Below the pieces are notes generated by a model. The model was not told the origin of the DNA and ran no database searches. It saw nothing but the letters and a program-made list of their open reading frames with translations. Of a stretch of DNA of 64,000 nt, positions 1,587-54,624 are shown one piece after another. The stretch lies in contig DATJYC010000001.1 of assembly GCA_035499735.1 (NCBI GenBank), positions 46,016 to 110,015 on the forward strand, read 5' to 3'. Made by a program: the position numbers and the translations under genes. The number at the start of each line of letters is the position of its first letter. Within the stretch, counting starts at the first letter, position 1. The stretch is from Burkholderiales bacterium (lineage in GTDB: Bacteria; Pseudomonadota; Gammaproteobacteria; Burkholderiales; SG8-39).

Positions 1587-1590
1587 GGCC

Positions 1591-3187: not shown

Positions 3188-3199
3188 CGCCTGCCGCCT

Positions 3200-3868: not shown

Positions 3869-3875
3869 GGCAAAG

Positions 3876-4226
3876 TCATTCGTTGCTGCTCGCCGCGAAA
3901 TCAATGACGACGTTAACGTTGCCGAATAGCGGAATGCGCTTCGAGTATGCGGTCGAAACGACCAGCTCGTTTCCTTCCTTCGTCACTTCGAGGTCCTTCG
4001 GGCCGATGACGTCGATGTCGTCTATCGCCTGGCGCAGCTGAAACGCGTATCGCACTTCGCCCACGGTCGCCGCCGGATTGGCGACCGCGACCGCTTTGAT
4101 CGCCTTCTTGACCTTGAAATACTCGATGTAGGCGGGCGCGATCTTGAGGCCGCCGATGGCGACGAACACGATCACGATGCACGCCACGATCATCCCCATC
4201 AGGGTCAACCCTCGCTGGTTCCTCAT
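3876..4226 (-). CDS. DUF4845-like small membrane-anchored protein
   Basis: Internal start [43 protein letters not shown] (116 aa), with an N-terminal hydrophobic anchor. Sits in the conserved position between lepB and rnc. The rest of the 3876..4919 ORF is out-of-frame overlap with lepB. Confidence 0.65.
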
Positions 4227-4237
4227 TGGATCACCTC

Positions 4238-5026
4238 TCACTGGAATTTCCCGATGCGCCTGAGCTCGCTGAAATTGAACCAGATGAAAAACGCCTTGCC
4301 CACGATGTTCTCGTCGGGCACGAATCCCCACACGCGGCTGTCGGCCGAATTGTCGCGGTTGTCGCCCATGACGAAGTAGTGCCCGGGCGGGACGGTGCAC
4401 GTCACGCCCTCGGCATTGTAGTTGCAATTCTCCCGGAAGGGGAACGGCTGCGTGAACGGTACCGCGGCCGGCGTGTCGCTTTCCTGGAGGATGGCGTGCT
4501 CCACCCCGCCGAGCGTTTCCTCGAATTGCGACGAATAGTGGACGCGCTCGCGGTTGAGATAGTCGGCCACTTGCTTGCGCGGCTGCGGGACTCCGTCGAT
4601 CGTGAGTCTCTTGTTCTCGTATGCGATCTTGTCTCCCGGGAGGCCGACGACCCGCTTGATGTAGTCGACCGACGGATCCACCGGATAGCGGAACACCATG
4701 ACGTCTCCGCGGTGAGGATCGCCGATGCTGAGGATCTTCTTGTTGAGAAGCGGAAGCCGGATGCCGTAGGCGAACTTGTTGACCAGGATGAAATCTCCGA
4801 CCAGCAGCGTCGGCACCATGGAGCCGGTTGGAATCTTGAACGGCTCCACCAGGAAGGAACGCAGCAGGAAGACGATCAGGATCACCGGAAAGAAGCTCTT
4901 CGGATACTCGATCCACCACGGCTCCTTGTCGTCCTTGCGCCGCTGCTTGCGGAAATAGAGCGCGTCCGCCAGGGCGAACGCCCCAGTGACCACCAGGAGC
5001 ACGAACAGGATCAGGGCAAAATTCAT
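4238..5026 (-). CDS. lepB: signal peptidase I
   Basis: 262 aa. IPTGSMVPTL (catalytic Ser), KRVVGLPGD, and GDNRDNSADSR boxes. Confidence 0.95.
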   Translation of the reverse strand: MNFALILFVLLVVTGAFALADALYFRKQRRKDDKEPWWIEYPKSFFPVILIVFLLRSFLVEPFKIPTGSMVPTLLVGDFILVNKFAYGIRLPLLNKKILSIGDPHRGDVMVFRYPVDPSVDYIKRVVGLPGDKIAYENKRLTIDGVPQPRKQVADYLNRERVHYSSQFEETLGGVEHAILQESDTPAAVPFTQPFPFRENCNYNAEGVTCTVPPGHYFVMGDNRDNSADSRVWGFVPDENIVGKAFFIWFNFSELRRIGKFQ

Positions 5027-5038
5027 CGCGGGATTTCG

Positions 5039-6832
5039 CTACTTGTTTTCGACTTGGAGTATCGCAAGGAAAGCCTCCTGAGGTATTTCAACCGTGCCGA
5101 CCTGCTTCATGCGCTTCTTTCCTGCCTTCTGCTTCTCGAGCAGCTTGCGCTTCCGGGTGATGTCGCCGCCGTAGCATTTCGCCAGCACATTCTTGCGCAG
5201 GGCCTTGACCGTCTCGCGGGCGATGATGTGGGAGCCGATCGCCGCCTGCACTGCAACGTCGAACATCTGCCGCGGAATCAGCTCGCGCATTCGCGAGACC
5301 AGATCCCGGCCACGGTAGGGGGCGTTCTCGCGGTGGACCATGAGGGACAGCGCGTCGACCCGCTCCCCGTTGATGAGGATATCGAGCTTCACCATGTCGG
5401 CCGCGCGGAATTCCCTGAACTCGTAGTCGAGGGACGCATAACCGCGGCTCGCGGACTTGAGCTTGTCGAAGAAATCCATCACCACTTCGTTAAGGGGCAT
5501 CTCGTAGGTGAGCATCACCTGGCGTCCGTGGTACTGCATGTTCCGCTGCACACCGCGCTTCTGGGTGCACAGCGTGATGATGGCGCCGACGTACTCCTGC
5601 GGCACGAAGATGGTGGTCTCGATGATCGGCTCGCGGATCTCCTCGATCTTCGACGGGTCGGGCAGCTTCGCCGGGTTCTCGATCCGCACGACCGTGCCGT
5701 CGCGCAGCTTCACTTCGTAGACCACTGTGGGAGCGGTCGTGACCAGCGTGATCCCGTATTCGCGCTCGAGCCGCTCCTGCACGATGTCCATGTGCAGCAG
5801 TCCGAGAAATCCGCACCGGAATCCGAAGCCGAGCGCCTGCGAGGTCTCCGGCTCGTAGTGCAGCGAGGAGTCGTTCAGCTTGAGCTTCTCGAGGGCGTCG
5901 CGGAACGCCTCGTACTCGTTGGCCTCGACCGGGTAGAGCCCGGCGAACACCTGCGGCTTGATCTCCTTGAAGCCCGGCAGGGGCGCCGCGGCCGGGCGGT
6001 CGGCCGAGGTGATGGTGTCCCCGACGCGCGCGTGCTGGAGTTCCTTCACGCCGGCGATCACGAAGCCCACCTCGCCCGCGGACAGGCGCTCGCGCTCCTG
6101 GCCCTTGGGTGTGAACACGCCGACCTGCTCGCATAGATGCTGGGCCTGGGTAGACATCAGCAGCAGCTTGTCCTTGGGCCGCATCGTCCCGTCGACCAGA
6201 CGCACCAGCATCACAACCCCGACGTAGTTGTCGAACCAGGAATCGATGATCAGCGCCTTGAGCGGGGCCTCGGGGTCGCCCTTCGGCGCCGGAATCCGGT
6301 GAATCACGGCTTCGAGGATGTCATCGACGCCTTCGCCGGTCTTGGCGCTCGCCCGCACCGCATCCTTGGCGGCGATCCCGATGACGTCCTCGATCTCCTG
6401 TATGGCGCGCTCGGGGTTGGCCGAAGGCAGATCGATCTTGTTCAGCACGGGCACGACCTCGACGCCCTGCTCGATCGCCGTGTAGCAGTTCGCGACCGTC
6501 TGTGCTTCCACACCCTGGCTCGCGTCCACCACGAGCAGCGCGCCCTCGCACGCCGCCAGCGATCGCGACACCTCGTACGAGAAATCGACGTGGCCCGGCG
6601 TGTCGATGAGGTTGAGGTTGTAGATGCGACCGTCGCGGGCCGCGTACTGGAGCGCGGCGGTCTGCGCCTTGATGGTGATACCGCGCTCGCGCTCCAGATC
6701 CATCGTGTCCAGAACCTGCTCGGACATCTCGCGGTCGGTCAGCCCTCCGCATCGCTGTATGAAGCGGTCGGCGAGCGTCGACTTCCCGTGGTCGATGTGC
6801 GCGATGATCGAAAAATTGCGGATGTGTTGCAT
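5039..6832 (-). CDS. lepA: translation elongation factor 4 (LepA)
   Basis: 597 aa. [33 protein letters not shown], and the conserved LepA C-terminal domain. Confidence 0.97.
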
Positions 6833-6918: not shown

Positions 6919-8343
6919 CTACCCGGACGCCGCCTCGCCCCGCACGGTGACGAACAGGTTGCTTTCCCCCCGCCGCACGTGAAGCGTGAGCGTAGTGCCG
7001 GGATTGAGCTGCGCAAGCACTTTGTTGAACTGCTCGGCGGAGCGCACGTCGGACGTCTGGCCTTTGCTCGTGACCGCGGTGATCACGTCGCCCGAGCGTA
7101 CGTCCGCCCGGCGGTTGCTCCGGACCTCCTCGACCATCACCCCGCCACCGACCTTCAGATCGCGCTTCTGCTCGGCCGTCAAGTCGACCACGACGAAGCC
7201 GAGCCGGTTGGCCGCCGCCTCGGGGGGCTTCCCCTTCCGCTCGCTGCGGCTCGCGACGCGGTCCTCGGGCAGCTCGCCCACCGTGACCGTGATCTCCCGC
7301 GTCGTGCCCTTGCGCCATATCTCCACGCTCGCCCTGCTTCCGGGCTTGGTGCCGCCGACGATGCGCGGCAGCTCGTTCGAGCTTGAGACGGCCTTGCCGT
7401 CGAATTTCATGATGATGTCGCCCGCCTCGACTCCGGCCTTATCGGCCGGGCCGCCCTTCTCCACGGCGTTGACCAGGGCGCCAGCCGCCTTGGGGAGGCC
7501 GAACGATTCCGCCAGCTCCTTCGAGACCTCCTGAATGACGACTCCGATCCTGCCCCGGCTAACGCGGCCAAATTGCCGCAGCTGTCCCTGCACCTCCATC
7601 GCGACGTCGATGGGGATGGCAAACGACAGCCCCATGAAGCCGCCTGTGCGGCTGTAGATCTGGGAGTTGATACCGACGACTTCGCCGCGCATGTTGAACA
7701 GCGGCCCGCCGGAATTGCCTGGATTGATGGCGACGTCGGTCTGAATGAACGGGACGAAGTTCTCCTGGGGCAGGCTGCGGCCCTTCGCGCTCACGATCCC
7801 CGCCGTGACCGTGCTCGCGAAGCCGAAGGGCGAGCCGATCGCCACGACCCACTCGCCAACCTTGAGGCGGTTCGGGTCCCCCATGTGCACCGCCGGTAGC
7901 CCAGTCGCGTCGATCTTCAGCAGCGCGAGGTCGGTGCGCTTGTCCGCGCCGATCACGCGCGCCTTGAATTCGCGCTTGTCGGTGAGGCTGACCGTGATCT
8001 CGTCCGCAGCGTCGACCACGTGCGCGTTGGTGAGAACGTACCCGTCCGAGCTGATGATGAAACCTGAGCCAAGCGAACGGCTCTCGAAGTCTCGCGGCGC
8101 CTGCCCGCCGGGACCAGGCGGCCGCGGCGCGAAGCGGCGGAAGAAGTCGTACAGCGGGTCGTCTTCTTCGAGGTTCGGGACCTGGGGCGAGGTGCGGCGC
8201 TCGCGCGTCTGCGTGGTGCTGATATTGACGACGGTGGGACCCTGCTTCTCGGCGAGATCGGTGAAATCGGGAAGGTCCCGGCCCTGCGCATGAAGCGCGG
8301 GCGGCAGCCACAGAAGGAGCCAGACAAGCAGTACTCTCGCCAT
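6919..8343 (-). CDS. mucD: DegP/DegQ/MucD-family periplasmic serine endoprotease (two PDZ domains)
   Basis: 474 aa. Signal peptide, TNAHVV (His), DLALLK (Asp), and GNSGGPL (Ser). Sits downstream of rpoE-rseA-rseB as in algU-mucABD loci. Confidence 0.9.
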   Translation of the reverse strand: MARVLLVWLLLWLPPALHAQGRDLPDFTDLAEKQGPTVVNISTTQTRERRTSPQVPNLEEDDPLYDFFRRFAPRPPGPGGQAPRDFESRSLGSGFIISSDGYVLTNAHVVDAADEITVSLTDKREFKARVIGADKRTDLALLKIDATGLPAVHMGDPNRLKVGEWVVAIGSPFGFASTVTAGIVSAKGRSLPQENFVPFIQTDVAINPGNSGGPLFNMRGEVVGINSQIYSRTGGFMGLSFAIPIDVAMEVQGQLRQFGRVSRGRIGVVIQEVSKELAESFGLPKAAGALVNAVEKGGPADKAGVEAGDIIMKFDGKAVSSSNELPRIVGGTKPGSRASVEIWRKGTTREITVTVGELPEDRVASRSERKGKPPEAAANRLGFVVVDLTAEQKRDLKVGGGVMVEEVRSNRRADVRSGDVITAVTSKGQTSDVRSAEQFNKVLAQLNPGTTLTLHVRRGESNLFVTVRGEAASG

Positions 8344-8389
8344 CGCGCAGTCCTCGGTTGTTCCGCGGGCGGAAGCCCCGGGCTTCTTT

Positions 8390-9373
8390 TTACTTGTGGT
8401 ACTCCACCGCGTTGGCGACGTATTTTACGCTCTCTGGGGGCGCCTCGCCGACCACCGTTACCCAGTAGTTGCCGATCGGGCGGGTATATACGTTGATCGC
8501 CCCTTGGCGCGAGAGGCCGGCCTGCGGGCTCGGCCGCTTGCTGTTAGCCGGCTCTATGAACACCGAGATCGCCGCCAGACCGTCCGACAGCACGATATGT
8601 CCCACGCCCCCCGTGCCCCCGACGGTACGCATCAATTCGGCGACCGTACGGAACCCCGGCGGCTTCGATCGTATCGTCCATCCCGATTCGGCGAGGTTGG
8701 CCCGCGTCGCCGCGGAGTCCTCGATCCGCCAATCCTTGGTCTGGCGGGAGTAGCGCGGCCTGAGCTGGTCTCGGCCCACGGGCCCGATCTTGATCTGGGT
8801 GAAGAAGAACTGCTCCAGCATCTCGTTCTTCTCGTTGTAGGTCTTGGCCTGGAGCAGCATGCCGGTGTTGACGTCCGCCCAGAGCCGGTGGCCGTAGCGC
8901 ATGCGATCCTTGGGTGCCAGGGTAAGGACTTGGCAGCTGTATCCGACGACACGCTCGACGTCGCCCTTCTTGATCGTGTAGTTCTCCGAAACGTCCTTGA
9001 GCTGCTCGGACAGGATCGCCGGAAACGGCCGACGGCCTGGCTGCTTGTCGATCTTCATCGTGCTGCTCGCCGGCAGATAGCAGACCACCTCGTCGCCGGT
9101 GCGCACAATCTCCCGCGGAATCCCGTTGAGGGTTTCGAGCCGCTCGCGCGGCCCGGTGGAGTCGGCGACGTGAACGATGCTCGAGGTCTCGCTGCGCTGG
9201 CCTTGCTGATAGACGAAGGTACCCGTATAGCTGAGCTTCTCCGAGGCGGCATAGATCCGTTGCAGCCATTGCAGCGCGGAGGGGTCGGTCTGGGCGATGG
9301 CCGCCGATACCGGCAGGAGGAAGGGCAGCACCCTGACCGGGTGCCACACTCGGCACGCGAAATCTCCGGTCAT
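8390..9373 (-). CDS. rseB: sigma-E regulatory protein RseB/MucB
   Basis: 327 aa. Signal peptide, ALQWLQRIYAASEKLSYTGTFVY typical of the MucB/RseB N-domain. ATGA overlap with the rseA stop. Confidence 0.85.
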   Translation of the reverse strand: MTGDFACRVWHPVRVLPFLLPVSAAIAQTDPSALQWLQRIYAASEKLSYTGTFVYQQGQRSETSSIVHVADSTGPRERLETLNGIPREIVRTGDEVVCYLPASSTMKIDKQPGRRPFPAILSEQLKDVSENYTIKKGDVERVVGYSCQVLTLAPKDRMRYGHRLWADVNTGMLLQAKTYNEKNEMLEQFFFTQIKIGPVGRDQLRPRYSRQTKDWRIEDSAATRANLAESGWTIRSKPPGFRTVAELMRTVGGTGGVGHIVLSDGLAAISVFIEPANSKRPSPQAGLSRQGAINVYTRPIGNYWVTVVGEAPPESVKYVANAVEYHK

Positions 9374-11083: not shown

Positions 11084-12322
11084 TCAGGCGCGCCGGAAGA
11101 TCAGGGTCCCGTTGGTGCCGCCGAACCCGAACGAGTTGGACAGCGCGGCCCGGATCGGCATGCGCCGAGCGGTGTTGGGCACGTAATCGAGGTCGCAGGC
11201 CGGATCCTGGCTTGCCAGGTTGGCGGTCGGCGGCGCGACCTGGTCGCGAATCGCCAGCGCCGAGAAGATAGCCTCGACGCCGCCAGCCGCGCCGAGCAGG
11301 TGACCGGTCATCGACTTGGTCGAGCTCACCGCGAGCTTCTTCGCGTGATCTCCGAAAGCGCGCTTCACGGCCACCGTCTCCGCGATGTCTCCGAGCGGCG
11401 TCGAGGTTCCGTGCGCGTTGATGTAATCGATATCGTCGCGGTTCATGCCGGCATTGCGCAGCGCATTCTCCATGCAGCGCGCGGCGCCGTCGCCGCTCTC
11501 CTGGGGCGCCGTCATGTGGAAGGCGTCGCCGCTCATGCCGTAGCCGGCGAGCTCGGCGTAGATTCTTGCGCCCCGCTTCTTCGCGTGCTCGATCTCTTCC
11601 AGCACCAAGACGCCCGCTCCTTCGGCAAGGACGAATCCGTCTCTGTCCTTCTCCCAGGGCCGGCTCGCGGTCAGCGGGTCGTCGTTCCTCGTCGACAGAG
11701 CGCGCGCCGAGGAGAAGCCGCCCACGCCGAGCGGAGTAATCGCGGCTTCGGCCCCTCCGGCGACCATGACGTCGCAGTCGCCGTACTCGATCAGGCGGCC
11801 CGACTCGCCGATGCAGTGGGCCGAAGTGGTGCATGCGGTGACCATCGCGAGGTTGGGGCCTTTCAGTCCGTGCATGATCGAGAAATTGCCCGAGATCATG
11901 TTGATGATGGTGCTCGGGATGAAGAAAGGCGAGATCTTGCGTGGCCCGCCCTTGAGCATGTCGTTGTGCGTTTCCTCGATCATCGGCAGCCCTCCGATCC
12001 CCGAGCCGATGTTCACGCCGATGCGCCCGGCATTGGCTTCGGTGACTTCGAGGCCCGAGTCCCTCAGCGCCTGCGTAGCCGCCGCGATGCCGAAGTGGAT
12101 GAAGCGGTCCATGCGACGCGCTTCCTTCGGCGAGAGATACTGTGACACTTCGAAATTCTTCACTTCACCCGCGATCTGGCTGGCGAAGGGGCTCGCATCG
12201 AACAGGGAGATGCGCGCGATTCCCGGCTTGCCGGCGAGCGCGTTCGACCAGGCTTCGGCAACGGTGTTGCCGATCGGGCAGATGATTCCTAGTCCGGTGA
12301 CAACGACACGACGGCGGCTCAA
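11084..12322 (-). CDS. fabF: 3-oxoacyl-ACP synthase II
   Basis: 412 aa. [20 protein letters not shown] (Cys), [11 protein letters not shown] (His), TGHLLGAAG (His). Immediately downstream of acpP. Confidence 0.95.
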
Positions 12323-12346: not shown

Positions 12347-12589
12347 TCAGGCTTTCTTGGAATGAGCGGAGACGTACGCGATGGCCTGCTGGACCGTCGT
12401 GATCTTTTCGGCCTCCTCGTCCGGAATCTCGGTCTCGAACTCCTCCTCGAGAGCCATCACGAGCTCCACCGTGTCGAGCGAGTCGGCGCCGAGATCGTCC
12501 ACAAAGGAGGATTCGTTCTTGATCTCCGCTTCGTTGACGCCGAGCTGTTCCGCGACGATTTTCTTGACGCGCTGTTCAACGTTTTCCAT
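12347..12589 (-). CDS. acpP: acyl carrier protein (housekeeping)
   Basis: Internal start [18 protein letters not shown]...[23 protein letters not shown] (80 aa), a canonical AcpP with the DSL site. Confidence 0.97.
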
Positions 12590-35233: not shown

Positions 35234-35309
35234 TCCCCGATAGCTCAGCTGGTAGAGCGACGGACTGTTAATCCGCAGGTCCCAGGTTCGAGCCCTGGTC
35301 GGGGAGCCA
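35234..35309 (+). tRNA. tRNA-Asn (anticodon GTT)
   Basis: Acceptor stem TCCCCGA/TCGGGGA, D-arm AGCTCAGCTGGTAGAGC, anticodon loop CTGTTAA, T-arm GGTTCGAGCCC, and an encoded CCA end. Confidence 0.95.
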
Positions 35310-35321
35310 CGTTTCTTGCCC

Positions 35322-36929
35322 TCACGCGACCACCGTCCCGTTGCGGTGGCCGACGACCACCCGGTTGCGGCCGGCCCCCTTTGCCGCGTAGAGCGCCATG
35401 TCGGCGACGCGCAGCAGTCCGTCGGCGTCCTGCGCATGATCGGGGTACAGTGCGACGCCGAAAGACGCAGCGATCCGTCCGAGGCCTTTCCCCTCGTAGC
35501 TGAGCTCTAGACCCCAGATCGAACCGCGGATGTCCTCGGCGCGTCGCTCGGCCGCCTCCAGGCCGGTTTCCGGAAGCACCAGAGCGAACTCCTCCCCTCC
35601 GTAGCGGCACGCGATGTCGCTTCCCCGCACCTTGCCTTTCAGCAGATTCCCTACTGAATTGAGCACGAGGTCCCCCGCTTCGTGCCCGAAGGAATCGTTG
35701 ATCCGCTTGAACCGGTCGAGGTCCAGCAGGATGACGGCGACCGGCGCGGTGTTCCGCCCGGATCGAGCCAGCTCGCGCGGCAGGAATTCGCTGATGTAGC
35801 GGCGGTTGTAGAGGCCGGTCAGCGGGTCCGATATCGCCTGCTCCTGCAGGCGCCTTTCGCGCTGTTGCAGCGCTCCGGCCATATCGTCGAAAGCGTGCGC
35901 AAGCTGGCCGAGCTCCTCGTTGCCGTAGACGATTCCAGTACGGGCGTTCAGATCGCCGCCACGCATCCGCTCGGCCGCGCGAAGAAGCGCCCTGAACTTG
36001 CGCAGCATGAACAGCTCCGCTCCGAACCAGGCGGCGACCAGCAGGAACAGCGTGGCCAGGGTTATGCCGAGCAGGTCACGGACCAGCGCACGATTGGCCT
36101 CGGCGAAAACCCGGCTGAGCGGCACCGTGATCAGGACGCGCAGCGGAAAGGCGCCGTCGGGGTTCTTGTAGATCACCTGGTGGGCGAGCAGCCACGCGAC
36201 TCCGTCCTCGCCCTTGACCTCGAGCACGCCCTCGCTGCCGGCGAGTATCGACTCGATCACCTGCGGGTTCCAAAGCTTTTGTCCGATTCGCTCCTTCAAG
36301 GCCGGCTTTCGCGAGAGAATCGTGCCCTTGACGTCGATCACGCTCAGGATGCCCTCGGGGGGCAGCGGGGTCGCCTCGGCCATGCGCGCGAGATTCTCGA
36401 GGTCGAGTCCGGCGAACGCCACTGCACGTACCTTCTTGTCCGCGTCCGTCACAGGAAATCCGAAATTGATCCCGGCCTGCCTCGTCACGCGTCCGATCTG
36501 ATATCCGCCCACGGCAAAACGGCCGGTCTCCTTGGCCAACCTGAAGTAGAGGCGGTCGCCGCTGTACACCTTGGCCTGCCATGTCACCGCGTTGCAAAGC
36601 AGGTTGCCGGTCTCGTCGAACAACCCCATGGCGTGATAGCTGTTCCGGTTCTGAGCAAGCAGATTCCTGAAGTAGTCCGTGCAACGCTTCCTGTCCTCGA
36701 GCAGCGTAACGAGAATGGGCAGCGAAGCCACCATCATCTGCCTTGCGCTCTCCACGACCTGCCACTGCTGCATCGCGGCCAGCTTCACCAGACGGACAAG
36801 CTCGGCACGCGCCTGCCTCTCCTGCGATTCGCGGCGCTCCAGCGCGCTGTAGACGGTGAAAGCCAGCGCGGGAAGAGCCGCAAGTACCACGAGCAGCAGT
36901 ATCCGTGCGCGGGTCTTGAGGTTGGTCAT
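35322..36929 (-). CDS. membrane diguanylate cyclase: periplasmic Cache-like sensor - HAMP - GGDEF
   Basis: Internal start MTNLKTRARILLLVVLAALPALA (TM1), an approximately 280-aa periplasmic domain, TM2, a HAMP domain (...GDLNARTG...LAHAFDDMAGAL), and a GGDEF domain with RGSDIACRYGGEEF (RxxD I-site plus GGEEF). Confidence 0.9.
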   Translation of the reverse strand: MTNLKTRARILLLVVLAALPALAFTVYSALERRESQERQARAELVRLVKLAAMQQWQVVESARQMMVASLPILVTLLEDRKRCTDYFRNLLAQNRNSYHAMGLFDETGNLLCNAVTWQAKVYSGDRLYFRLAKETGRFAVGGYQIGRVTRQAGINFGFPVTDADKKVRAVAFAGLDLENLARMAEATPLPPEGILSVIDVKGTILSRKPALKERIGQKLWNPQVIESILAGSEGVLEVKGEDGVAWLLAHQVIYKNPDGAFPLRVLITVPLSRVFAEANRALVRDLLGITLATLFLLVAAWFGAELFMLRKFRALLRAAERMRGGDLNARTGIVYGNEELGQLAHAFDDMAGALQQRERRLQEQAISDPLTGLYNRRYISEFLPRELARSGRNTAPVAVILLDLDRFKRINDSFGHEAGDLVLNSVGNLLKGKVRGSDIACRYGGEEFALVLPETGLEAAERRAEDIRGSIWGLELSYEGKGLGRIAASFGVALYPDHAQDADGLLRVADMALYAAKGAGRNRVVVGHRNGTVVA

Positions 36930-37025
36930 GTTGGGCACGCACCTCGGCACGCCCTGCCCGGGTGCCAAATTTTCACGCAGTCCCCGGGGCACGGCGCCGT
37001 CCATTCCCGCACGGCGCCTATGACG

Positions 37026-37048
37026 ATGGAATACGACAATGGAATACG
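37026..37048 (+). repeat. tandem direct repeat ATGGAATACG x2 (13-nt period) abutting the rpfF -35 region
   Basis: Exact 10-mers at 37026-37035 and 37039-37048. Confidence 0.6.
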
Positions 37049-37054
37049 CCTCCC

Positions 37055-37082
37055 TTGCGAGCTTTCGATTTGGGAGTATAGT
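37055..37082 (+). promoter_or_regulatory. candidate sigma-70 promoter of the rpfF-like gene
   Basis: TTGCGA-N16-TATAGT, followed by a roughly 55-nt leader and AAGGGA 7 nt before the ATG at 37145. Confidence 0.4.
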
Positions 37083-37144
37083 CTGCGCAAGACGTACTTC
37101 TTCTGCAATCCGCTTCTCCACCACACTAACGAAAGGGAAAAATC

Positions 37145-38068
37145 ATGAACGCACCGGTCGATTTTGGAGCAATACAGGGGATTTTTCAAAAGCAATACCG
37201 GCAAATCGAAGTCCGTTTCGATCCCGACTTGAGCGCCGCTTGGACCTACATGAAGCCCTCCGGCGCACCCTGCTTCAACCTGGGCATGCTCGAAGAGCTG
37301 CGCGCCCACGATAGCGCGATCGAGTCCTCCGGAGGACGCGTGCTCCACCACGGGGAGCTCCACCAGATCCACTACTACGTCGGCGCCTCCAGAATAGAGG
37401 GCATCTTCAGCCTCGGCGGGAATCTCGCGAATCTCGTGCAGCTGATCCGCTCGGGCGACCGTGACACTCTCGTCCGCTATGCCAAGCTGTGCGTCGACAA
37501 CATGTACCCGAGGTTGTGCAACTACAACAGCCCGATCACCACGATCTCGCTGGTACAGGGAGAGGCGCTCGGGGGAGGTTTCGAGACCGCGCTCGCTTCG
37601 AACGTCATCATCGCCGAGCGTCGCTCGCAGATGGGCCTGCCGGAAATCCTGTTCAACCTCTTCCCCGGCAACGGCGCCTACAGCCTGCTCGCGCGGCGCG
37701 TCGGGATCAGGCGCGCCGAGGAGATGATCCTCTCGGGACGAGTCTATACCGCGGTCCAGCTTAGGGACATGGGCGTAGTGGACGTGATCGCGGAAAACGG
37801 CGACGGCGAGGCGGCAGTTCGCGCCTATATCCGCGGCAACGAGCGGCGTCGCAACGGCATGCAGGCGATGTTCGAGTGCCGTCGGCACCTCGATCCCGTG
37901 AGCTACGAAGAGCTGCTCAACATCGCGAATGTCTGGGTCGACGCCGCGCTGCGCGTCGAGGAAAAGGATCTCAAGCTGATGAGCCGTCTCGGACGCTCGC
38001 AGATCCGGCGCACGGAAGGGCCCGCCGTCGAGGAACCTGCCCGCGAATTCCGCTTCGCGATGGCCTGA
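37145..38068 (+). CDS. rpfF: RpfF-like DSF-family signal synthase (crotonase/enoyl-CoA hydratase fold)
   Basis: 307 aa. IFSLGGNLANLVQLIRSGDRDTLVRYAKLCV parallels Xanthomonas RpfF ...FNLGGDLALFCQLIREGDRARLLDYAQRCV. ALGGGFETAL and GLPEILFNLFPGNGAYS carry the two catalytic Glu positions (Xcc sequence recalled from memory). Confidence 0.85.
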   Translation: MNAPVDFGAIQGIFQKQYRQIEVRFDPDLSAAWTYMKPSGAPCFNLGMLEELRAHDSAIESSGGRVLHHGELHQIHYYVGASRIEGIFSLGGNLANLVQLIRSGDRDTLVRYAKLCVDNMYPRLCNYNSPITTISLVQGEALGGGFETALASNVIIAERRSQMGLPEILFNLFPGNGAYSLLARRVGIRRAEEMILSGRVYTAVQLRDMGVVDVIAENGDGEAAVRAYIRGNERRRNGMQAMFECRRHLDPVSYEELLNIANVWVDAALRVEEKDLKLMSRLGRSQIRRTEGPAVEEPAREFRFAMA

Positions 38069-38232
38069 GCAACGCCTCGAGCCGGCTCCCGAGTGAACCG
38101 AGGGGGCCGGTCTTGGCCGCGAATCCGCGGCCTGCCGGGGCGGCTCTGGTCCGTCTTGACCGGTGCGTCCAGACGCGCCCCGGCAGTACTTTCCCGCTTG
38201 GCCCGTTGCGGGCGCGCAAGCCCGCGCTTCCA

Positions 38233-39501
38233 TCAGGGCCGAAAACCAGCAAGAAGCAGGCTCGCATTGGTACCGCCGAATCCGAAGCTATTGGAGAGAA
38301 TCGTGCGCAGCTCGGTCTGGCGCGTGGACCGAACGACGGGCAACCCTTCGAAGTCGGGGTCCAGCGTCTCGATGTTGATCGAAGGCGCGATGAAGCCGTG
38401 CTCAAGCATGGCCACGCAGAAAATCGTCTCCAGTGCGCCCGCCGCGCCCAGAGGATGGCCAGTCATCGACTTCGTGGATGAGAACGGCGGGAGCGCCCCA
38501 CCGAACACCGTCTTCATCGCGATCACCTCGGCGAGGTCGCCCTTGGACGTCGAAGTGCCGTGGGTCTTCACCGCGCCGACGTCGCCGGGGCCGATCCCCG
38601 CGTCGCGCATGGCGCTGAGCATGCACTTCGCGGCGTGAGCGCCAGTCGGCTCCGGCATCACCATGTCGAACCCGTCCGAGCTGGTGCCAAAGCCGATGAC
38701 CTCGGCGCGCACTCTGGCACCCCGCGCGAGCGCAAGATCGAGAGCCTCCAGAACGACGATGCCCGCTCCGCCGCCGATCACGAAGCCGTCGCGCTCGCGA
38801 TCGTACGGGCGGGATGCGCGTTCCGGGGTGTCGTTGTACTTCGAGGAGAGTGCGAATCTCAGTGCCTGGAATCCCGCGGTGATCAGCGGGTGCACCTCCT
38901 CCCCTCCTCCGGCGATCACGCGCTCCACGAGACCATTGCGGATGAGCTCGTACGCCGTCCCGATGCTGTGCGAGGATGTCGAGCAGGCCGAGCTGATCGA
39001 GTAGCTGCGACCGTGGACCTTGAGCAGGTTGGCCACCGCCGCGCTCGAGGAGCTCGCCATGCCTTTCAGCACGACGAAGGGGCTGAGCTTGGAGATCTCG
39101 CCGGCGTAGACCTGCCGTCCCCCGGCGTAGATCGATTCGACGCTCCCGATACCCGTCCCGACGATGCAGGCTGTGGCATCCGACTGCACTTCGGCCTCCG
39201 AGAGGCCGGAATCCCCGACCGCATCGAGCGCGGCGATGCAGCAGTACTTGGACGCTTCCGACATCGTCGGCAGCAGTCTCTTCGGGATCGGCGTGCGCTC
39301 GAGCTTGGACTCCACTCCGGCAATCGCACCCGCCACCCGGCTCTTGAGGCCCAAACCTTCCCATTCCGGCATGCCGCGCACGCCACTCGCTCCGGCCCGA
39401 AGAGCTTCGACGACCCGGGGATACTCGTGCCCCAGACACGAGACCAGACCCACTCCGGTGATCGCCACGCGCCGAGAGGCCATCGATCGGAACCGCGTCA
39501 C
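38233..39501 (-). CDS. dedicated beta-ketoacyl-ACP synthase (FabB/FabF-type, intact Cys-His-His triad)
   Basis: RRVAITGVGLVS, YSISSACSTSSHSIG (Cys), KTHGTSTSKGD (His), TGHPLGAAG (His), and [15 protein letters not shown]. The GTG at 39501 overlaps the ACP stop (GTGA). An ATG at 39483 (MASRRVAITG) is an alternative start. Confidence 0.85.
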   Translation of the reverse strand: MTRFRSMASRRVAITGVGLVSCLGHEYPRVVEALRAGASGVRGMPEWEGLGLKSRVAGAIAGVESKLERTPIPKRLLPTMSEASKYCCIAALDAVGDSGLSEAEVQSDATACIVGTGIGSVESIYAGGRQVYAGEISKLSPFVVLKGMASSSSAAVANLLKVHGRSYSISSACSTSSHSIGTAYELIRNGLVERVIAGGGEEVHPLITAGFQALRFALSSKYNDTPERASRPYDRERDGFVIGGGAGIVVLEALDLALARGARVRAEVIGFGTSSDGFDMVMPEPTGAHAAKCMLSAMRDAGIGPGDVGAVKTHGTSTSKGDLAEVIAMKTVFGGALPPFSSTKSMTGHPLGAAGALETIFCVAMLEHGFIAPSINIETLDPDFEGLPVVRSTRQTELRTILSNSFGFGGTNASLLLAGFRP

Positions 39502-39761
39502 GCCGACCGCGAGCGCCGCTGGCTTTTCTCGATCGCCTCGAACAGCTCGCCTATGCTCTGGATGCGGCTCAGCTCCTCGTCGTCGAATTCGACACCCAAG
39601 GCGCCCTCCAGCTCGGACGCGAGCGTGATGAGAATCAGAGAGCTGATGTCCAGATCGTCTCGGAGTGAAGTCGCGTCGGTGACCTCCGCCGCGGAGATTT
39701 TGGCATCGGATGAGGCAAGGAGGCGGTGGATTACCTGATCCCGCAGTGCTGAATCGATCAT
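39498..39761 (-). CDS. dedicated acyl carrier protein
   Basis: 87 aa. MIDSALRDQVIHRLL...LRDDLDISSLILITLASELEGALGVEFDDEEL, an ACP four-helix pattern with the Ser attachment motif (D-I-S-S-L in place of D-S-L). It starts 20 nt after the rpfC stop. Confidence 0.8.
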   Translation of the reverse strand: MIDSALRDQVIHRLLASSDAKISAAEVTDATSLRDDLDISSLILITLASELEGALGVEFDDEELSRIQSIGELFEAIEKSQRRSRSA

Positions 39762-39781: not shown

Positions 39782-42292
39782 CTAGCGCGCGGCGCTTTGG
39801 CTCTTCCTCAGATACTCCAGCAGCGACGCGCGTGTCTGCTGGAAGTGTTCGCGCACCAGCTTGAGCGCCCTCGGCGCGCTCGCTTCCAGCTCCGAGCTCG
39901 TCTGTGCATTGATGCCCACGCACGTCTTGCACAGCTGATCCGCACCCAGCGTCACCGCCGAGCCCTTCATCGCGTGAACCAGATCCTTCAAGCCGTCGTA
40001 CTGCTTGGCGGCTATCGCGGCCTCCATCTGCCGCAGCAGGGCCTCGCCGTCCTGGATGAAGCCGTTGACGAGTTCCGGCATGAAACTGCCTCCCGAGCCG
40101 ATCAGCTCGAGCTCGGCCAGCGCGGCCGCGTTGATGATCGCTGGCTCGGCTTCCGCGACGCTCTCGGCCGCGGCCGCCTGCTCGCTCGCCCGCTTGGAGA
40201 CGAGGTGCGCGATCGTATCCAGCAGCCGGCGCGCCTCGACCGGCTTGGATAGGAACGCGTCCACGCCCGCATCCTCGCATTCCTTTCGAGCTTCCGCGGT
40301 CACGTCCGCGGACAGCATGATGATCGGAACATGCACCGCTTCCGGATCCATGAAACGGTAGGCGCGCGCCGCGTCCAGCCCGCCCAGCTCCGGCATGTTC
40401 AGGTCCATGATCACGACGTCGAAACGCTCGTTCTCAAGAACGTCGAGCGCCTGCTCGCCGTCGCCCACCACCCTGACTCTGTGTCCCGCGCGCTCCAGTA
40501 TCCCCACGATGACACGCTGGTTGACCGCGTTGTCTTCCGCCACGAGTACCTGATAGCGGCGCTTGTTGGCGTCGCGCGCCGCGTAGTAGTCGCTGAGCGA
40601 TATGACCCCTTCCTGGCTTTCCTGGACGGCGGTCGCGGAATGGATCGCGTTGAACAGCAGCCGCTTCTTGAAAGGCAACTCGAGCACCGCCGCGAACCCG
40701 CTGGCCAGCGCCGCGGCCGTGCGATCCTGGGAAAGGCCACGCCCGCATAGCACCAAGGGAGGATGCTTCTGGCCGCGAAGACTGCTCAGGCGACCGACAA
40801 GGCGCGCGTGCTCGATCTCCCCTGCCTCACGAATCAGCACAAGATGGTAGGGGTGCCCGAGTGACTGTGCTTCCGCGAGCCGCGCCCCCGCTGCGTCCGG
40901 CCCCGCTTCACGCCCGGTACGCGCTCCCCACGTGGAGAGGTCGTGCTCGAGCGCGCGAAGCTCCGCCTCCGCAAAGCCGAGGAGCATGATGCGGGTGTCG
41001 TTCAGCCGGAAGGATGTCTCGGGGGCCTGACCCGCGATCTGCTTCTTGAGCTGCAGTTCAAACCAGAAAGTGCTGCCCTTGCCCGGCGTGCTCTGCAACC
41101 CGATCTGGCCTCCCATCATCTCCACCAGCTGCTTGGAGATCGTGGTTCCCAATCCGGTTCCGCCGTAGCGCCGCGTGGTCGATTCGTCCGCCTGCGTGAA
41201 GCTCTCGAAGATTCGGTCTTGCGCCTCCGGCGCGATGCCGATGCCCGTATCCTCGATGGAGAACCTCAGGCGGACCGCATGGTCGCTTTCACCCAGGCTG
41301 GAAACCGTGAGGCTGACGCTGCCCGCCTGGGTGAACTTGATGCCGTTCCCGATGAGGTTGTAGAGCACCTGCCGCAGGTGGTACGGATCTCCCCGCAGCG
41401 CATGCGGAACCTCCGGCATGACGTGCGCCCTGAACTGCAGGCCCCGGATCTCGGCTTGTGGGCCGAGCACTACCGCTGTCCCGTTGATTAGGCTGTGCAG
41501 GTCAAAATCGGTCTCCTCGATGCTGACCTTGCCTGCCTCGATCTTCGAGATGTCCAGCACGTCCTCGATGAGCTTGAGCATGGCGTGCGATGCTTCGTGC
41601 ATCGCCTTCACCATCTCCGCCTGCTCGGCGTTCAACTGCGTATCGCGCAGCAGATCGTTCATGCCGATGATTGCGTTCAGCGGAGTGCGCATCTCGTGGC
41701 TGACGGTGGACAGGAACCTGCGCTTCGCCTGGTTCGCGGCTTCCTCGCGACGCAACGAGTCGAACAGACGCGTCACCATCTTTCCGACCCAAAACGCGAG
41801 CACGATCATTCCCACGAGAAGCCCGAGGCCGAGCGTTCGGTTTTCGATCCAGTACTCGCTGAACGAGAGGACAAGGCCGAAGCCGAGGACGCTCAGGGCC
41901 AGTGCGTTGTACAGGTACGGCTTTCCGTAGCGGAACCCGTGTCCGAACATGACCACGAGATAAATGGTGTACAGAACCGCCCCCGACTCCCCCAAGTAGT
42001 ACATGAACGCGGAAGTCGAGCCGATGTCCAGGAAGGCGGCGAAAACGCGCCGCGGAGGCGTCGCTCGCGGCGCGACCTGGATCCAGGCCAGGACCGTCAC
42101 GCATAGGACCAGATAGCAACCCATCGCGGCGAACAGCAGGGCGTTCGGCCCGCCCTCGCCGACAGCGTGGGGCAGAAGGTAAAGGAACAGCACCAGCCCG
42201 ACGCCGAGGCGCAGTTTCGCCTGCTCCTGCTCGGTGTCCGCGCCGCCGGTTATGCGACCGCGGAGGCGCGCGAGGAGCGAGTTCGACGCCAT
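39782..42292 (-). CDS. rpfC: RpfC-like hybrid sensor kinase: polytopic membrane sensor - HisKA - HATPase - pseudo-receiver - REC - HPt
   Basis: Internal start [40 protein letters not shown] (836 aa). About 5-6 TM helices with a GHGFRYG loop, an H-box [14 protein letters not shown] (His199), and G-boxes EDTGIGI/GGTGLG. The REC domain has VVIMDLNMP (Asp630) and the HPt has HAMKGSA (His773). Confidence 0.85.
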
Positions 42293-42303: not shown

Positions 42304-43413
42304 TTACTCCGCGATCTGGTCGGCGAAGCGCTCGCCGATAGACAGGACTTCGTCGCGCTCGCGCGAAAGGATTTCCACGAGCTTCGGATCGAAGTGGCGT
42401 CCAGCGTGGTCTTCCATGTACGCGAGCGCCTCGTCGACCGGCCACGCCGGCTTATAAGGGCGCACCGACGTCAGAGCGTCGTAGACGTCCGCGATCGCGA
42501 CGATGCGCGCCTCCAGGGGGATGTGCTCGCCCCGCAGCCCCGTGGGGTAGCCGCTGCCGTCGTACTTCTCGTGATGCCCGAGCGCGATCACGGCGGCCAT
42601 CTGCAGATAACCGGAGGAGCTGTCCTTGAGCATGTCGTACCCGATTCGCGCATGCGATTGCATGACGCGCAGGTCGTTGCCGTCGAGCCTGCCAGGGTTC
42701 TGCAAGATGCGGTCGGGAATGCCGATCTTTCCGATGTCGTGCATCGGAGCTGCAAGCTCGATCGCGTCCTGCTCGGCGGCAGACAGGCCCACCCCTCTGG
42801 CGATGAGGGCAGAGTACTTTGCCATGCGCACCAAGTGCATACCGGTGACCTTGTCGCGCTGTTCCGCGGCCTTGGCGAGCCGAAACAGCGTTTCCACCTC
42901 GCGCCGGCGCAGCTCGCGCGTCGCCTCGTCGATCTTCTGTTCGAGGATCCGCGTGCGGTTCTTCTTCAGGATCTCATGGCGGCGCAGACTCAGCAGATTG
43001 CGGCACCTGGCACCGCATTCCAGCCGGTCGATGGGGCGGATGAGGAAGTCGGTCGCCCCGGCCTCGAGAGCACGGTACCGCACCTCGCGATCGTTCACGA
43101 CAGTGATGCATACGATGGGCACGTCCTCGTAGCCGAAGATGCGCCGCAAGCGCCGGATCACCTCGATTCCGTCCAGGTTCGGCATTTTGTAATCGGTGAG
43201 CACCATGTCGACGGCATGCCGGCGTGCGAACTCAATGGCCTCGAGCGGATCGGCAAAGGTGGTGACTTCGAGGCTGGCGTCCAAGCCTCTCATGATTTCG
43301 CTGAGGACGATGCGCCCCGTAGACTGATCGTCTATGACCAGCACTTTCAGGGGCGCGAGCTTCGCCTCGACCGAATCGTGAACCAGCGTTAGCGGTCTAG
43401 ATGTAGTTTTCAT
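42304..43413 (-). CDS. rpfG: RpfG-like response regulator with HD-GYP c-di-GMP phosphodiesterase domain
   Basis: Internal start MKTTSRPL... (369 aa). REC domain (VLVIDDQ...[13 protein letters not shown]). HD-GYP domain ([13 protein letters not shown]...[14 protein letters not shown]). Confidence 0.9.
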
Positions 43414-43528: not shown

Positions 43529-44902
43529 TCATACCACGTTGTCATATGTGGTGCGCTGCATCGGCACCCTGAATCCGTCCTCCATCTCCCGGCGTAGCCT
43601 CACGGCGGCGCTGGAGCCGTCGACGGCCACGTCGCTCCACAGCAAGGGCGCACCAGCCCGAACGGGCCTGAGGACCTTGGCTTCATGCGCGAGCCCCAGG
43701 GGCAGCGCCCCCAAGCGGAGGGACTCGGCCGCCGGCATCAACCTACCCACCACAGTGTAACCCCCTTCGCCGTCAAGCAATTCTCCCGTTCGCAGGTCCC
43801 GTTTCGCCGTCGCGACGGCGTCCGCGCGGAATCCCGACGGGCAGCCCGTAGCCTCGCCACGGAGTCCAACGGAGGCCACGGAGATGCCGACTTCGAGCCC
43901 GATGAGGTGCCACCGCTTGTACATGCATGCGTAGCGCCCCGAGGGGTCGGTACGCACCCCGTATTCCAGGAAGCAGCGGCGGATGTAGTCCGATTCCCCC
44001 TCGAATACCACCCAGACGCCGAAGCGGATGTCGTAGGGTATCGCGGTTCCGTCGCGCTCCAGCGACGAAACCACCTCCACCTGGCCCTTGTGGTGGAGGC
44101 ATCCTCCCTCGGACCTGGGCCGCATGATCGCAGGCAACGCGTCGATCGACGCGCTCGGATACGCCAGACCATCCGGCGCGGGCGTCAACCCCGTCGCGTT
44201 GCTCACGGCGGTGCACTCGATCGCAGGCTTCGAGCCGTCCAGAAAGGAATTGAAGATCTTCGGGTTCAGCCCGCCGAGGCGTGCCTGCTCGGAGGTGAGC
44301 CCGTAGTGCTGCCATACCGTCTCGGGCGTCGATTGCGCGAAGTGCGGGAGCCATTTGTGGCCGCGCCCCGCGGCGACGACCGGAAATCCGGCTGCGCGGG
44401 CCCAATCGACGAGGTCACAGATGATCGCCGGCTGATCGCCGTAGGCCAGGCTGTAGACCACCCCCGCTTCTCGGGCCTTTTTCGCGAGCAGCGGTCCGCA
44501 GACCGCGTCGGCCTCCACGGTGACCATGATTACGTGCTTGCGGTTGTGGAATGCCGCGAGCGCGTGCGCGACGGCTGCAATCGGGTTTCCCGTCGCCTCG
44601 ATCACTATGTCGATCGACGGGTGGGATACCAAGCCCTCCCAGTCCTCCGAAAGGTGCGTCTTTCTTTCCTTCAGCGCCGCGTCCAGTGATGCCGCGGCGT
44701 AGCTCTCGGGCTTCCATCCCACTCGGGCAAGGTTCGCACGCGCGCCTTCGGGCGAGAGATCGGCGATTCCCGCAATGTGTACGCCCGGCGTGCGCGTGGC
44801 CTGGGCGAGGTACATCGCCGCGAACTTGCCTGCGCCGATCACGCCGACGCGGAGGGGCCTGCCCTGAGCCTCGCGCTCCTGCAGCTTCGCGTGGAGGTTC
44901 AT
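43529..44902 (-). CDS. NAD(P)-binding, SAF-domain oxidoreductase (homoserine-dehydrogenase-like, COG4091-type)
   Basis: 457 aa. Rossmann motif VGVIGAGKFAAMY at the N-terminus, a central dehydrogenase-like region, and a C-terminal SAF-like beta-clip (...LLDGEGGYTVVGRLMPA...). Confidence 0.65.
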   Translation of the reverse strand: MNLHAKLQEREAQGRPLRVGVIGAGKFAAMYLAQATRTPGVHIAGIADLSPEGARANLARVGWKPESYAAASLDAALKERKTHLSEDWEGLVSHPSIDIVIEATGNPIAAVAHALAAFHNRKHVIMVTVEADAVCGPLLAKKAREAGVVYSLAYGDQPAIICDLVDWARAAGFPVVAAGRGHKWLPHFAQSTPETVWQHYGLTSEQARLGGLNPKIFNSFLDGSKPAIECTAVSNATGLTPAPDGLAYPSASIDALPAIMRPRSEGGCLHHKGQVEVVSSLERDGTAIPYDIRFGVWVVFEGESDYIRRCFLEYGVRTDPSGRYACMYKRWHLIGLEVGISVASVGLRGEATGCPSGFRADAVATAKRDLRTGELLDGEGGYTVVGRLMPAAESLRLGALPLGLAHEAKVLRPVRAGAPLLWSDVAVDGSSAAVRLRREMEDGFRVPMQRTTYDNVV

Positions 44903-44908
44903 CGGAGT

Positions 44909-45751
44909 CTACGCCGCGGCGAGCGGCTTGAGGGCCTCCGCCGGGGTGCCGTCCTTCCAGGGAAGCGGCACTTCGTAGTCCTCGAGCAGGCAATCGTCCG
45001 GCAGGCAGCGCAGCGGCGTGAAATCCCGGTGCGCAATGTATTCGGGACGCTTGAATCGCCGGATGTGATTCGACACAGCGCACAGGCTCAGATAGACGCT
45101 CACCCGGTTCCAGGGCGACAGGTTGGATGTGGACGCGTGCACCAGGCACGAGTGGAACAGGATCATCGATCCGGGCGGACCCTTGGGGGCGACGAGGCCG
45201 CCGCGCTGCACGAGCTTCGCGATCGTTTCGTGGTCGATGGTCCACAGGGGATAGCTGGTCGTGGAAAGATCGTGCCTCGCCTCGAGGACGCCGCGCTCGT
45301 GGCTCCCCGGGATCAGCATCAGCGGACCGTTGAACTCGTTCACCTCGTCCAGGAATATGGCGACATTCATCGCTCGGGCCTCGGGCATCCAGTCATCGTT
45401 CTTCCATGTGCCGTAGTCTTGGTGCCACTGCCAGACGTCGCCGTCGAAGGCCATCTTCCCGTTGATCTTGAACTGGTGCATGTACACATCTTCGCCGAAG
45501 ATCTGGACAATCGGCTCGACCATGCGCGGATGACGGGCGAGCTTCGCGAACGGAAGGCTGTAAAGGTGCGCGGCGAAATTCGTTCGAACGGCATCGCTGC
45601 CCTTCTCGCGCACGTTCTCCGGCCGGCGTTGAGCGTAAAGTCGCGGGACCTCCTCGGTCAGCACCTTGATCTCCTCCGCTCGGAACAGACTCGGAAAGAA
45701 GAGATAGCCGTCGCGCTCGAACTGTCTAACGTGCTCGTGGCTGAGCTTCAT
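44909..45751 (-). CDS. Fe(II)/2-oxoglutarate dioxygenase, PhyH/EctD-like
   Basis: 280 aa. FERDGYLFFPSLF, WQWHQDYGTWKNDDWMP (HxD facial-triad motif, resembling the ectoine-hydroxylase signature), and a distal His in ILFHSCLVHAS. Confidence 0.8.
   Translation of the reverse strand: MKLSHEHVRQFERDGYLFFPSLFRAEEIKVLTEEVPRLYAQRRPENVREKGSDAVRTNFAAHLYSLPFAKLARHPRMVEPIVQIFGEDVYMHQFKINGKMAFDGDVWQWHQDYGTWKNDDWMPEARAMNVAIFLDEVNEFNGPLMLIPGSHERGVLEARHDLSTTSYPLWTIDHETIAKLVQRGGLVAPKGPPGSMILFHSCLVHASTSNLSPWNRVSVYLSLCAVSNHIRRFKRPEYIAHRDFTPLRCLPDDCLLEDYEVPLPWKDGTPAEALKPLAAA

Positions 45752-48490: not shown

Positions 48491-54624
<6,134 letters not shown>

Follow-up and report, generated by a model that had tools for sequence, protein, structure and literature searches.

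An acyl carrier protein and a FabB-like ketoacyl synthase embedded in the sensor operon of an RpfF/RpfC/RpfG-type locus of uncultured Burkholderiales

Signaling through the family of diffusible signal factors (DSF) is encoded in Xanthomonas campestris (Xcc) by the rpf cluster, in which rpfB-rpfF is convergent with rpfC-rpfH-rpfG. DSF-family signals are thought to be drawn from bulk fatty acid synthesis by RpfF alone, which acts on 3-hydroxyacyl-acyl carrier protein (ACP); the promiscuous thioesterase activity of RpfF is a known cost, offset by RpfB. The RpfF-RpfR systems of Burkholderia cenocepacia and Cronobacter employ a cytoplasmic PAS-GGDEF-EAL receptor, RpfR, instead of RpfC/RpfG, and have no associated ACP or beta-ketoacyl-ACP synthase (KAS). 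Here we describe a DSF-type locus in which a private ACP and a KAS are encoded between the sensor kinase and the convergent RpfF-family crotonase. The locus lies in a 64,000-nt stretch, hereafter the window, from Burkholderiales bacterium (assembly GCA_035499735.1, contig DATJYC010000001.1, positions 46,016-110,015 of the forward strand). The evidence is comparative throughout, and every carrier of the locus or of its relatives is a metagenome-assembled genome (MAG) or a metagenome contig.

Gene order across 35.2-45.8 kb of the window was established from the listing of open reading frames (ORFs) combined with Pfam and NCBIfam scans. The KAS (422 aa from a GTG start, 38233-39501, minus strand) and the ACP (87 aa, 39498-39761, minus strand) follow, in the direction of transcription, the genes for an RpfG-type response regulator with REC and HD-GYP domains (42304-43413, minus strand; PF00072 with PF13487/PF01966) and an RpfC-type hybrid sensor kinase (39782-42292, minus strand). 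The ORFs of the regulator and the kinase reach further upstream, to 43545 and, as an 887-aa frame, to 42445, the likely starts being M45 and M52, respectively. On the opposite strand, the crotonase (307 aa, 37145-38068, plus strand) is convergent with the KAS across a 164-nt spacer. The original prediction, which had placed an ACP and a Cys-His-His KAS between an rpfC-like stop and a convergent rpfF-like gene, is borne out in all its features. It had also described the two genes as second copies, and a housekeeping fabG-acpP-fabF cluster is indeed present in the same window at approximately 11.08-13.6 kb (FabF, 11084-12322; AcpP, 12347-12589; both minus strand). As in Xanthomonas campestris, an operon that encodes a hybrid kinase and a REC-HD-GYP regulator runs toward the crotonase gene; unlike there, rpfB and rpfH are missing, the order is rpfG-rpfC-acp-kas, and the ACP and the FabB-like KAS intervene between rpfC and rpfF. 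The predicted lack of an adjacent rpfB holds as well: when the ORFs of the window were screened for the AMP-binding signature, no rpfB-like ligase was found next to the crotonase, the sole ORF with the signature being an acetoacetate-CoA ligase (52642-54624, minus strand) that is not an rpfB candidate. A specialized paralogue of the type II fatty acid synthesis machinery is known from Xcc, where the 3-oxoacyl-ACP reductase FabG2 (XCC0416), which is specific for long chains, takes part in DSF synthesis (PMC5941067). The pair in the window would resemble FabG2 in being a non-housekeeping paralogue that contributes to a DSF-family signal; however, FabG2 is a reductase that works with the housekeeping ACP and whose gene stands alone outside the rpf cluster, whereas the window has a condensing enzyme and its own carrier in the sensor operon.

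The identity of the three backbone genes was examined separately. The crotonase scores 347 bits against NCBIfam model NF006452 (cut-off 177) and 206.5 bits against the xanthomonad RpfF equivalog NF053515, well below the cut-off of 550. Because the meaning of these values depends on what the models cover, partial sequences taken from the PDB alignments of 6dgn and 7zq7 were scored in the same way. The partial 6dgn, named RpfF, yields 396 bits with NF006452 and only 184.5 bits with NF053515, whereas the partial 7zq7, named crotonase family protein, yields 408 and 569 bits, respectively. Since NF006452 captures solved RpfF-type sequences, it represents a broad DSF-synthase-type family to which the crotonase of the window belongs, and since the RpfF of 6dgn also falls below the NF053515 cut-off, that model is specific to a clade and is not a test of function. 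The Burkholderia cenocepacia and Cronobacter proteins (5fus, 6dgn) likewise belong to NF006452 and fall outside the xanthomonad equivalog. The best PDB matches of the crotonase are 7zq7, 3m6m, 6dgn and 5fus, all RpfF or RpfF-like crotonase structures; its GGGFE and GLPEI motifs align with those of 3m6m and 7zq7, and Glu147 and Glu167 are invariant among 21 orthologues. These residues correspond to the two catalytic glutamates of RpfF, Glu141 and Glu161 in Xcc numbering. As judged from the NF006452 score and the retained glutamates, the crotonase is a member of the DSF-synthase family.

According to Pfam, the kinase consists of a multi-transmembrane (TM) input region followed by HisKA, HATPase, REC and HPt domains, without a periplasmic domain; five to six hydrophobic segments precede the HisKA domain in the translation, and the sequence D-T-E-Q-E-Q stands just before TM1. 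In Xcc RpfC, the membrane-adjacent residues Arg15, Asp17, Ser18 (where Thr is tolerated), Glu19 and Gln22 are essential for DSF sensing (PMC5391125). The window kinase has D, T, E and Q at the correct spacing relative to D17, S18, E19 and Q22 and thus keeps the D-S/T-E-x-x-Q pattern, just as the crotonase keeps both catalytic glutamates; at the position of Arg15 it has Gly, where roughly one aligned orthologue in two has Arg (R-P-D-[ST]-E-x-E-Q). Apart from the Arg position, the motif is a specific match to the RpfC sensor residues. The regulator has the HDIGK and GSGYP motifs in its translation. The combination of an RpfF-family crotonase, a kinase with the RpfC motif and a REC-HD-GYP regulator identifies the locus as a DSF-type system, so that the assignments of the original prediction to rpfF, rpfC and rpfG stand.

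The ACP matches PF00550 with an E-value of 2e-8, and its predicted phosphopantetheine attachment site is Ser41 in the sequence DLDISSL. The LDISSL motif, correctly singled out from the sequence of the window, is invariant in 12 Burkholderiales orthologues and appears as LDLSSL in an acidobacterial homologue. The protein is nevertheless distant from AcpP. It lies below all AcpP-type NCBIfam cut-offs (at best 36.5 bits versus 71), has SSL in place of DSL, differs from AcpP in helix II (SSLILITLASELE) and gives no tblastn match to AcpP at an E-value of 1e-3. We classify it from these comparisons as a PP-binding carrier that is not AcpP.

The KAS matches the Pfam families PF00109 (E-value 4e-38) and PF02801 (E-value 1e-31) and contains SSACSTS, THGTSTSKGD and TGHPLGAAG, as anticipated in the claim of an intact elongating triad. 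In an alignment of 115 sequences, namely 113 clade members together with the window's own KAS and its FabF, Cys173, His314, His349 and two threonines are invariant, and Lys344 is found in 114. As far as residues can indicate, the KAS is a decarboxylating condensing enzyme with a complete active site. It scores 433.9 bits with the FabB model NF005935 (cut-off 630) and 385.9 bits with the FabF model TIGR03150 (cut-off 493.75). The best solved relative is a FabB (3oyt, 360 bits), the top FabB entries being those of Yersinia (360 bits) and Vibrio (353 bits), whereas the best FabF reaches about 282 bits; identity to the FabF of the window is 36%. By these scores the KAS is nearer to FabB than to FabF, although it lies below the cut-offs of both, so that placement relative to the two families succeeds as far as FabB-likeness is concerned and fails to put the protein inside either equivalog. 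Compared with Escherichia coli FabB (KAS I; about 345 bits), the enzyme has the same Cys-His-His-Lys site and a similar length; in contrast to it, besides scoring below the FabB cut-off, it comes with an ACP of its own, no fabA lies nearby as a partner, and many sister species lack it.

The pair is tightly packed behind the kinase gene. On the minus strand, the kinase stop codon (TAG, 39782-39784) is followed, after 20 nt, by the ATG of the ACP, and the TGA of the ACP overlaps the GTG of the KAS by 4 nt (GTGA); the gap between regulator and kinase is 11 nt. Of 23 related loci, 17 retain the 4-nt overlap, as GTGA or ATGA, and several of these lack an in-frame ATG shortly after it. The annotation of an identical database protein (P0121) begins at an ATG that lies 18 nt farther along (39483), giving 416 aa; on account of the conservation of the overlap, the overlapping GTG is probably the true start. 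The overlap also suggests translational coupling of ACP and KAS. A promoter and terminator scan, in which the number of sites did not exceed the chance expectation from shuffled sequence, revealed no terminator-like site at the rpfC-acp or the acp-kas junction. The claim of co-transcription, made from the 20-nt distance and the overlapping GTG, therefore finds the operon-like packing on which it relied.

All relatives of the locus are found in MAGs of uncultured soil Burkholderiales/Betaproteobacteria. Median pairwise ratios of nonsynonymous to synonymous substitution (dN/dS), obtained with dS near 1, are 0.18 for the ACP and 0.12 for the KAS, compared with 0.17 for the crotonase, 0.18 for the kinase and 0.08 for the regulator. 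The similarity of the pair to its neighbors in this respect argues that these are real genes and not chance ORFs, and substitution patterns indicate that the pair is kept by selection over a long divergence. In 11 of 18 GTDB species representatives with the crotonase, the pair occupies exactly the same slot (one of these contigs ends within the KAS), as it does in locus L009 and five metagenome contigs. In the other seven species, the crotonase and kinase genes are separated by 41-160 nt; locus L001 also lacks the pair. A tblastn search of the pair-less loci for acp or kas remnants found none, which, together with the short intergenic regions, shows that the absences are clean. In neighbor-joining (NJ) trees built from small samples, pair-bearing and pair-less loci are intermixed, and the tree of the KAS approximates those of the crotonase and the kinase, a pattern that fits an ancestral cassette with several losses. 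The RpfC sensor motif does not distinguish the two kinds of locus. A search for a recombination scar in rpfC came to nothing: C-terminal similarity to the kinases of mobile elements, described below, is no higher in pair-bearing loci.

Within the convergent intergenic region lies a conserved, GC-rich, hairpin-like element of 56 nt (38131-38186, no strand assigned; CCTGCCGGGG...TTGACCGGTGCGT...CCCCGGCAG), which is predicted to form a hairpin and exhibits almost no covariation. An Rfam search of this region gave only a chance-level microRNA match. The element follows the crotonase gene in both pair-bearing and pair-less loci, which places the boundary of the insertion or deletion between the element and the stop codon of the kinase gene. 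A terminator common to both kinds of locus, or a binding site, may be its role.

Beyond this group, homologues of the KAS fall into a near tier (71-80% identity) and a distant tier (59-64%). Two metagenome contigs encode a KAS 76-80% identical to that of the window, along with an ACP (47-48%) and a kinase (approximately 33-36%), and no crotonase. A sample of five mobile-element loci, drawn from that group and from basal branches, shares one arrangement: a gene for an Xre helix-turn-helix protein, a receiver-only regulator, an RpfC-like hybrid kinase, an ACP and a KAS (L112, 5536-11215; L113, 5503-11212; L114, 5873-11263; L115/L116, 5594-11251; L117, 738-11269). The receiver-only protein is divergent, with about 238 aa, and its receiver is most similar to that of the window RpfG (39-41% identity). 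The kinases are about 32-36% and the KASs 71-80% identical to those of the window. The surrounding conjugative backbones include TrbC-VirB3-VirB4/TrbE-TrbL-VirB8-CagX-TrbI, TraG, a TraI relaxase, ParA/ParB/KorB and a FlhC-like regulator. The module stands immediately next to trbC of a Trb/VirB type IV secretion operon in four of the five loci; in L115, trbC follows 120 nt past the KAS on the same strand. No crotonase or HD-GYP domain is encoded within 10 kb in any of the five. The kinases hold part of the sensor motif, with N-Y-G-E-F-A-Q versus D[ST]ExEQ, the genes downstream of the KAS are not conserved, and in an NJ tree the mobile-element KASs are basal to the rpf-linked ones. A tblastn search of the PLSDB plasmids with a mobile-element KAS returned only true fabB, at no more than 47% identity. 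This five-gene module may be a mobile signaling cassette.

Several individual features of these elements deserve to be recorded. In L117, a 1457-aa TIR-CHAT-TPR protein of defense-like type is encoded between the Xre and receiver genes (1407-5780, minus strand). In L115, a LuxR-type regulator with autoinducer-binding and GerE domains adjoins the Xre gene (4386-5165, minus strand), and no LuxI-type synthase is in view. The KAS of L112 (10001-11215, equivalent to L037 6001-7215) has a 12-residue internal deletion relative to its relatives, affecting the EQASRPYDVARD segment after KYNDRP, and may be impaired.

The distant tier is a sister clade from Acidobacteriota (59-64% KAS identity) with a fixed module of ACP, KAS, FabZ-like dehydratase and metallophosphoesterase (L005, 7736-10664; also L006-L008 and L029-L031), flanked by divergent genes for a thioester-reductase-type short-chain dehydrogenase/reductase and an aldehyde dehydrogenase. 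As in the window, a homologous private ACP and a sister KAS are joined by a dehydrating partner; in contrast to the window, this partner has the hot-dog fold and is not a crotonase, and there is no two-component system. A neighborhood control was provided by a metagenome scan with the KAS, in which 73 of 80 loci were ordinary FabB at 43-49% identity; none of these 73 has an ACP, a crotonase or an RpfC-type kinase as neighbor. The recurrence of this ACP-KAS lineage behind RpfC-type kinase genes, on chromosomes and on conjugative elements, argues for a functional tie to signaling and against chance adjacency. Considering further that seven of 18 RpfF loci lack the pair and that the mobile modules lack a crotonase, the firmest association is that of kinase, ACP and KAS, not that of crotonase, ACP and KAS; across the loci compared, the pair is most consistently tied to the kinase and not to RpfF.

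The flanks of the chromosomal locus show a conservation of their own. Divergent from the crotonase, and without counterpart in the Xanthomonas campestris arrangement, is a gene for a dCache-HAMP-GGDEF diguanylate cyclase (35322-37124, minus strand; Pfam), which stands beside the crotonase in most, not all, related loci whose contigs extend to that position. Its outer side, where the rpf-type locus ends, is adjoined by a tRNA-Asn gene (35234-35309, plus strand); tRNA genes are common integration sites of islands, and no integrase or repeat evidence was found. Upstream of rpfG are genes for a DRL-type oxidoreductase with a SAF domain (43529-44902, minus strand) and a PhyH-family dioxygenase (44909-45751, minus strand), the latter ectoine-hydroxylase-like at a score below the cut-off. 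Both are present in every related chromosomal locus whose contig reaches that far, also where the outer flanks differ, and they may be part of the same functional island, for instance in signal modification. In L023 alone, a PlsC-type acyltransferase (7955-8851, plus strand; PF01553, with the HX4D motif NHASFLD) is encoded between the crotonase and the KAS, which hints that, at this locus at least, an acyl chain may be passed to a lipid acceptor.

We tentatively propose, at slightly less than an even chance, that the pair is an accessory module that builds the acyl chain of the signal on a private carrier for processing by RpfF. A host phosphopantetheinyl transferase would convert the private ACP to its holo form and host FabD would load it with malonate; the KAS would then condense malonyl-private-ACP with a primer, a medium-chain acyl group supplied by acyl-AcpP or acyl-CoA, yielding a 3-oxoacyl-ACP on the private carrier. 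Reduction by host FabG would give the 3-hydroxyacyl-ACP, which the RpfF-type crotonase would dehydrate and hydrolyze to a cis-2-enoic acid to be sensed by RpfC. As the pair lies within the sensor and regulator transcript, precursor supply and the expression of the sensing apparatus would be coupled. The module is dispensable, pair-less relatives presumably using bulk 3-hydroxyacyl-AcpP directly, like Xanthomonas. This proposal is favored by the acidobacterial parallel, in which ACP-KAS plus a FabZ-like dehydratase corresponds to KAS plus the dehydrating RpfF, as well as by the operon packing, the purifying selection, the same-slot conservation in 11 of 18 species and the clean 73-locus control. 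The domains and active-site residues, the independent linkage of ACP-KAS to RpfC-like kinases in the five conjugative-element loci, the action of RpfF on 3-hydroxyacyl-ACP and the precedent of Xcc FabG2 speak for it too.

Several observations weigh against it. The locus has no ketoreductase, malonyl transferase or phosphopantetheinyl transferase, so that a very divergent ACP would have to be acceptable to four enzymes of the host. Because seven of 18 species and L001 keep rpfF, rpfC and rpfG without the pair, RpfF does not need it; conversely, its presence on mobile elements without an RpfF within 10 kb means that the pair needs no adjacent RpfF. The sensor motif, which does not differ between loci of the two kinds, gives no sign that the pair alters signal identity, and conservation of position within one clade could be partly inherited synteny, the PhyH and DRL genes being equally conserved. 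The original prediction of a dedicated carrier thus holds for the reality of the locus and the pair, whereas neither feeding of RpfF nor insulation from lipid synthesis is supported by the evidence at hand. The idea that the pair serves RpfF in particular is weakened both by the seven pair-less species and by the five mobile relatives with no crotonase within 10 kb.

The separability of the two enzymes invites another explanation, possible though rather unlikely in our estimate, in which the ACP and KAS are an independent synthase of a signal or co-signal that does not pass through RpfF, the window locus having two synthases for one sensor. This synthase would make a 3-oxo- or 3-hydroxy-fatty acid, or a methyl ketone derived from one, released by a host thioesterase or by spontaneous hydrolysis and sensed by the adjacent kinase. 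Loci with RpfF alone exist on chromosomes, and all five mobile modules combine kinase, regulator, ACP and KAS with no crotonase within 10 kb; each enzyme is therefore individually linked to the kinase, and the basal position of the mobile-element KASs in the NJ tree points the same way. On the other hand, the product of a Cys-His-His KAS stays bound to its ACP, the mobile modules encode no releasing enzyme and, as noted, keep no common gene past the KAS. Their kinases, with NYGEFAQ instead of D[ST]ExEQ, may sense another ligand, and their hosts may carry rpfF elsewhere. Vibrio cqsA-cqsS and Ralstonia phcBSR are familiar cases in which the gene of a signal synthase adjoins that of a kinase for a hydrophobic autoinducer of fatty-acyl origin; however, CqsA is a pyridoxal phosphate-dependent acyl-CoA transferase and PhcB a methyltransferase, neither being a KAS with a private ACP. 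An extension that we consider unlikely would make of kinase, ACP, KAS and cognate receiver a horizontally mobile, self-contained cassette that both makes and senses a fatty-acid signal, with a FabB-type ketosynthase and its private ACP as a new class of autoinducer synthase. Located on conjugative elements beside the trbC end of the type IV secretion operon, such a cassette would make transfer depend on cell density, in the manner of TraI/TraR on Ti plasmids, and its ACP-KAS part would have been captured into the chromosomal RpfF/RpfC/RpfG locus of these soil Burkholderiales. An alternative given with the original prediction, that crotonase, KAS and ACP form a minimal synthase for a different fatty-acid-derived signal, may also apply.

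It is quite unlikely, in our view, that the pair has no signaling role and is a syntenically inherited remnant of mobile cargo or a module for lipid or unsaturated fatty acid synthesis, with a FabB-like function or as a source of acyl chains for a specialized lipid. The FabB-like nature of the KAS, the PlsC-type acyltransferase of L023, the repeated loss of the pair and the equal synteny of the unrelated-looking DRL oxidoreductase and PhyH dioxygenase would agree with this reading. Against it, two very different genomic backgrounds, whose kinases share only about 32-36% identity, both have the pair right behind an RpfC-type kinase gene, the spacing is tight, the overlap suggests translational coupling, and none of the 73 FabB-like controls adjoins an ACP or such a kinase. 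Moreover, a private ACP would be superfluous in a housekeeping role, and seven of 18 species manage without the pair. Very unlikely is a tuning of signal structure by the pair, either in chain length or through a second double bond as in the cis,cis-dienoic DSF-family signals, which would create dialects among species. FabB-type enzymes are established to elongate cis-unsaturated intermediates (E. coli FabA/FabB), and presence and absence are interleaved among close species; however, the RpfC sensor motif does not change with the cassette, and the only candidate tracker in the crotonase, residue 261, which is Ala or Ser with the pair and Thr without it in 21 loci, was rejected when the independent metagenome contig L036 was found to have the KAS together with Thr. 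Two further candidates were discarded. A polyketide beta-branching cassette comprises an ACP, a decarboxylating ketosynthase without the active-site Cys, a 3-hydroxy-3-methylglutaryl (HMG)-CoA synthase and ECH1/ECH2, whereas here the ketosynthase keeps its Cys, the crotonase is of the RpfF family and no HMG-CoA synthase is encoded between 33 and 46 kb. Membership in the RpfF family likewise rules out a FabM-type isomerase.

No account of such an arrangement came up in a literature search, of incomplete coverage and hence no proof, for ACP or KAS genes of rpf clusters and conjugative elements; this agrees with the original prediction, which knew of no described DSF system of this organization, and the conserved layout with ACP and KAS in the sensor operon is apparently undescribed. 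If the proposed provision of RpfF with precursors on a private carrier is true, it would be the first dedicated supply line for this class of signals and would offer a handle on how their chain length and amount are set. The carriers found are all uncultured; the genes are small and amenable to synthesis and heterologous expression. The modules beside conjugation genes raise the possibility that fatty acid-based quorum sensing is carried by, and perhaps controls, conjugative elements in soil bacteria.

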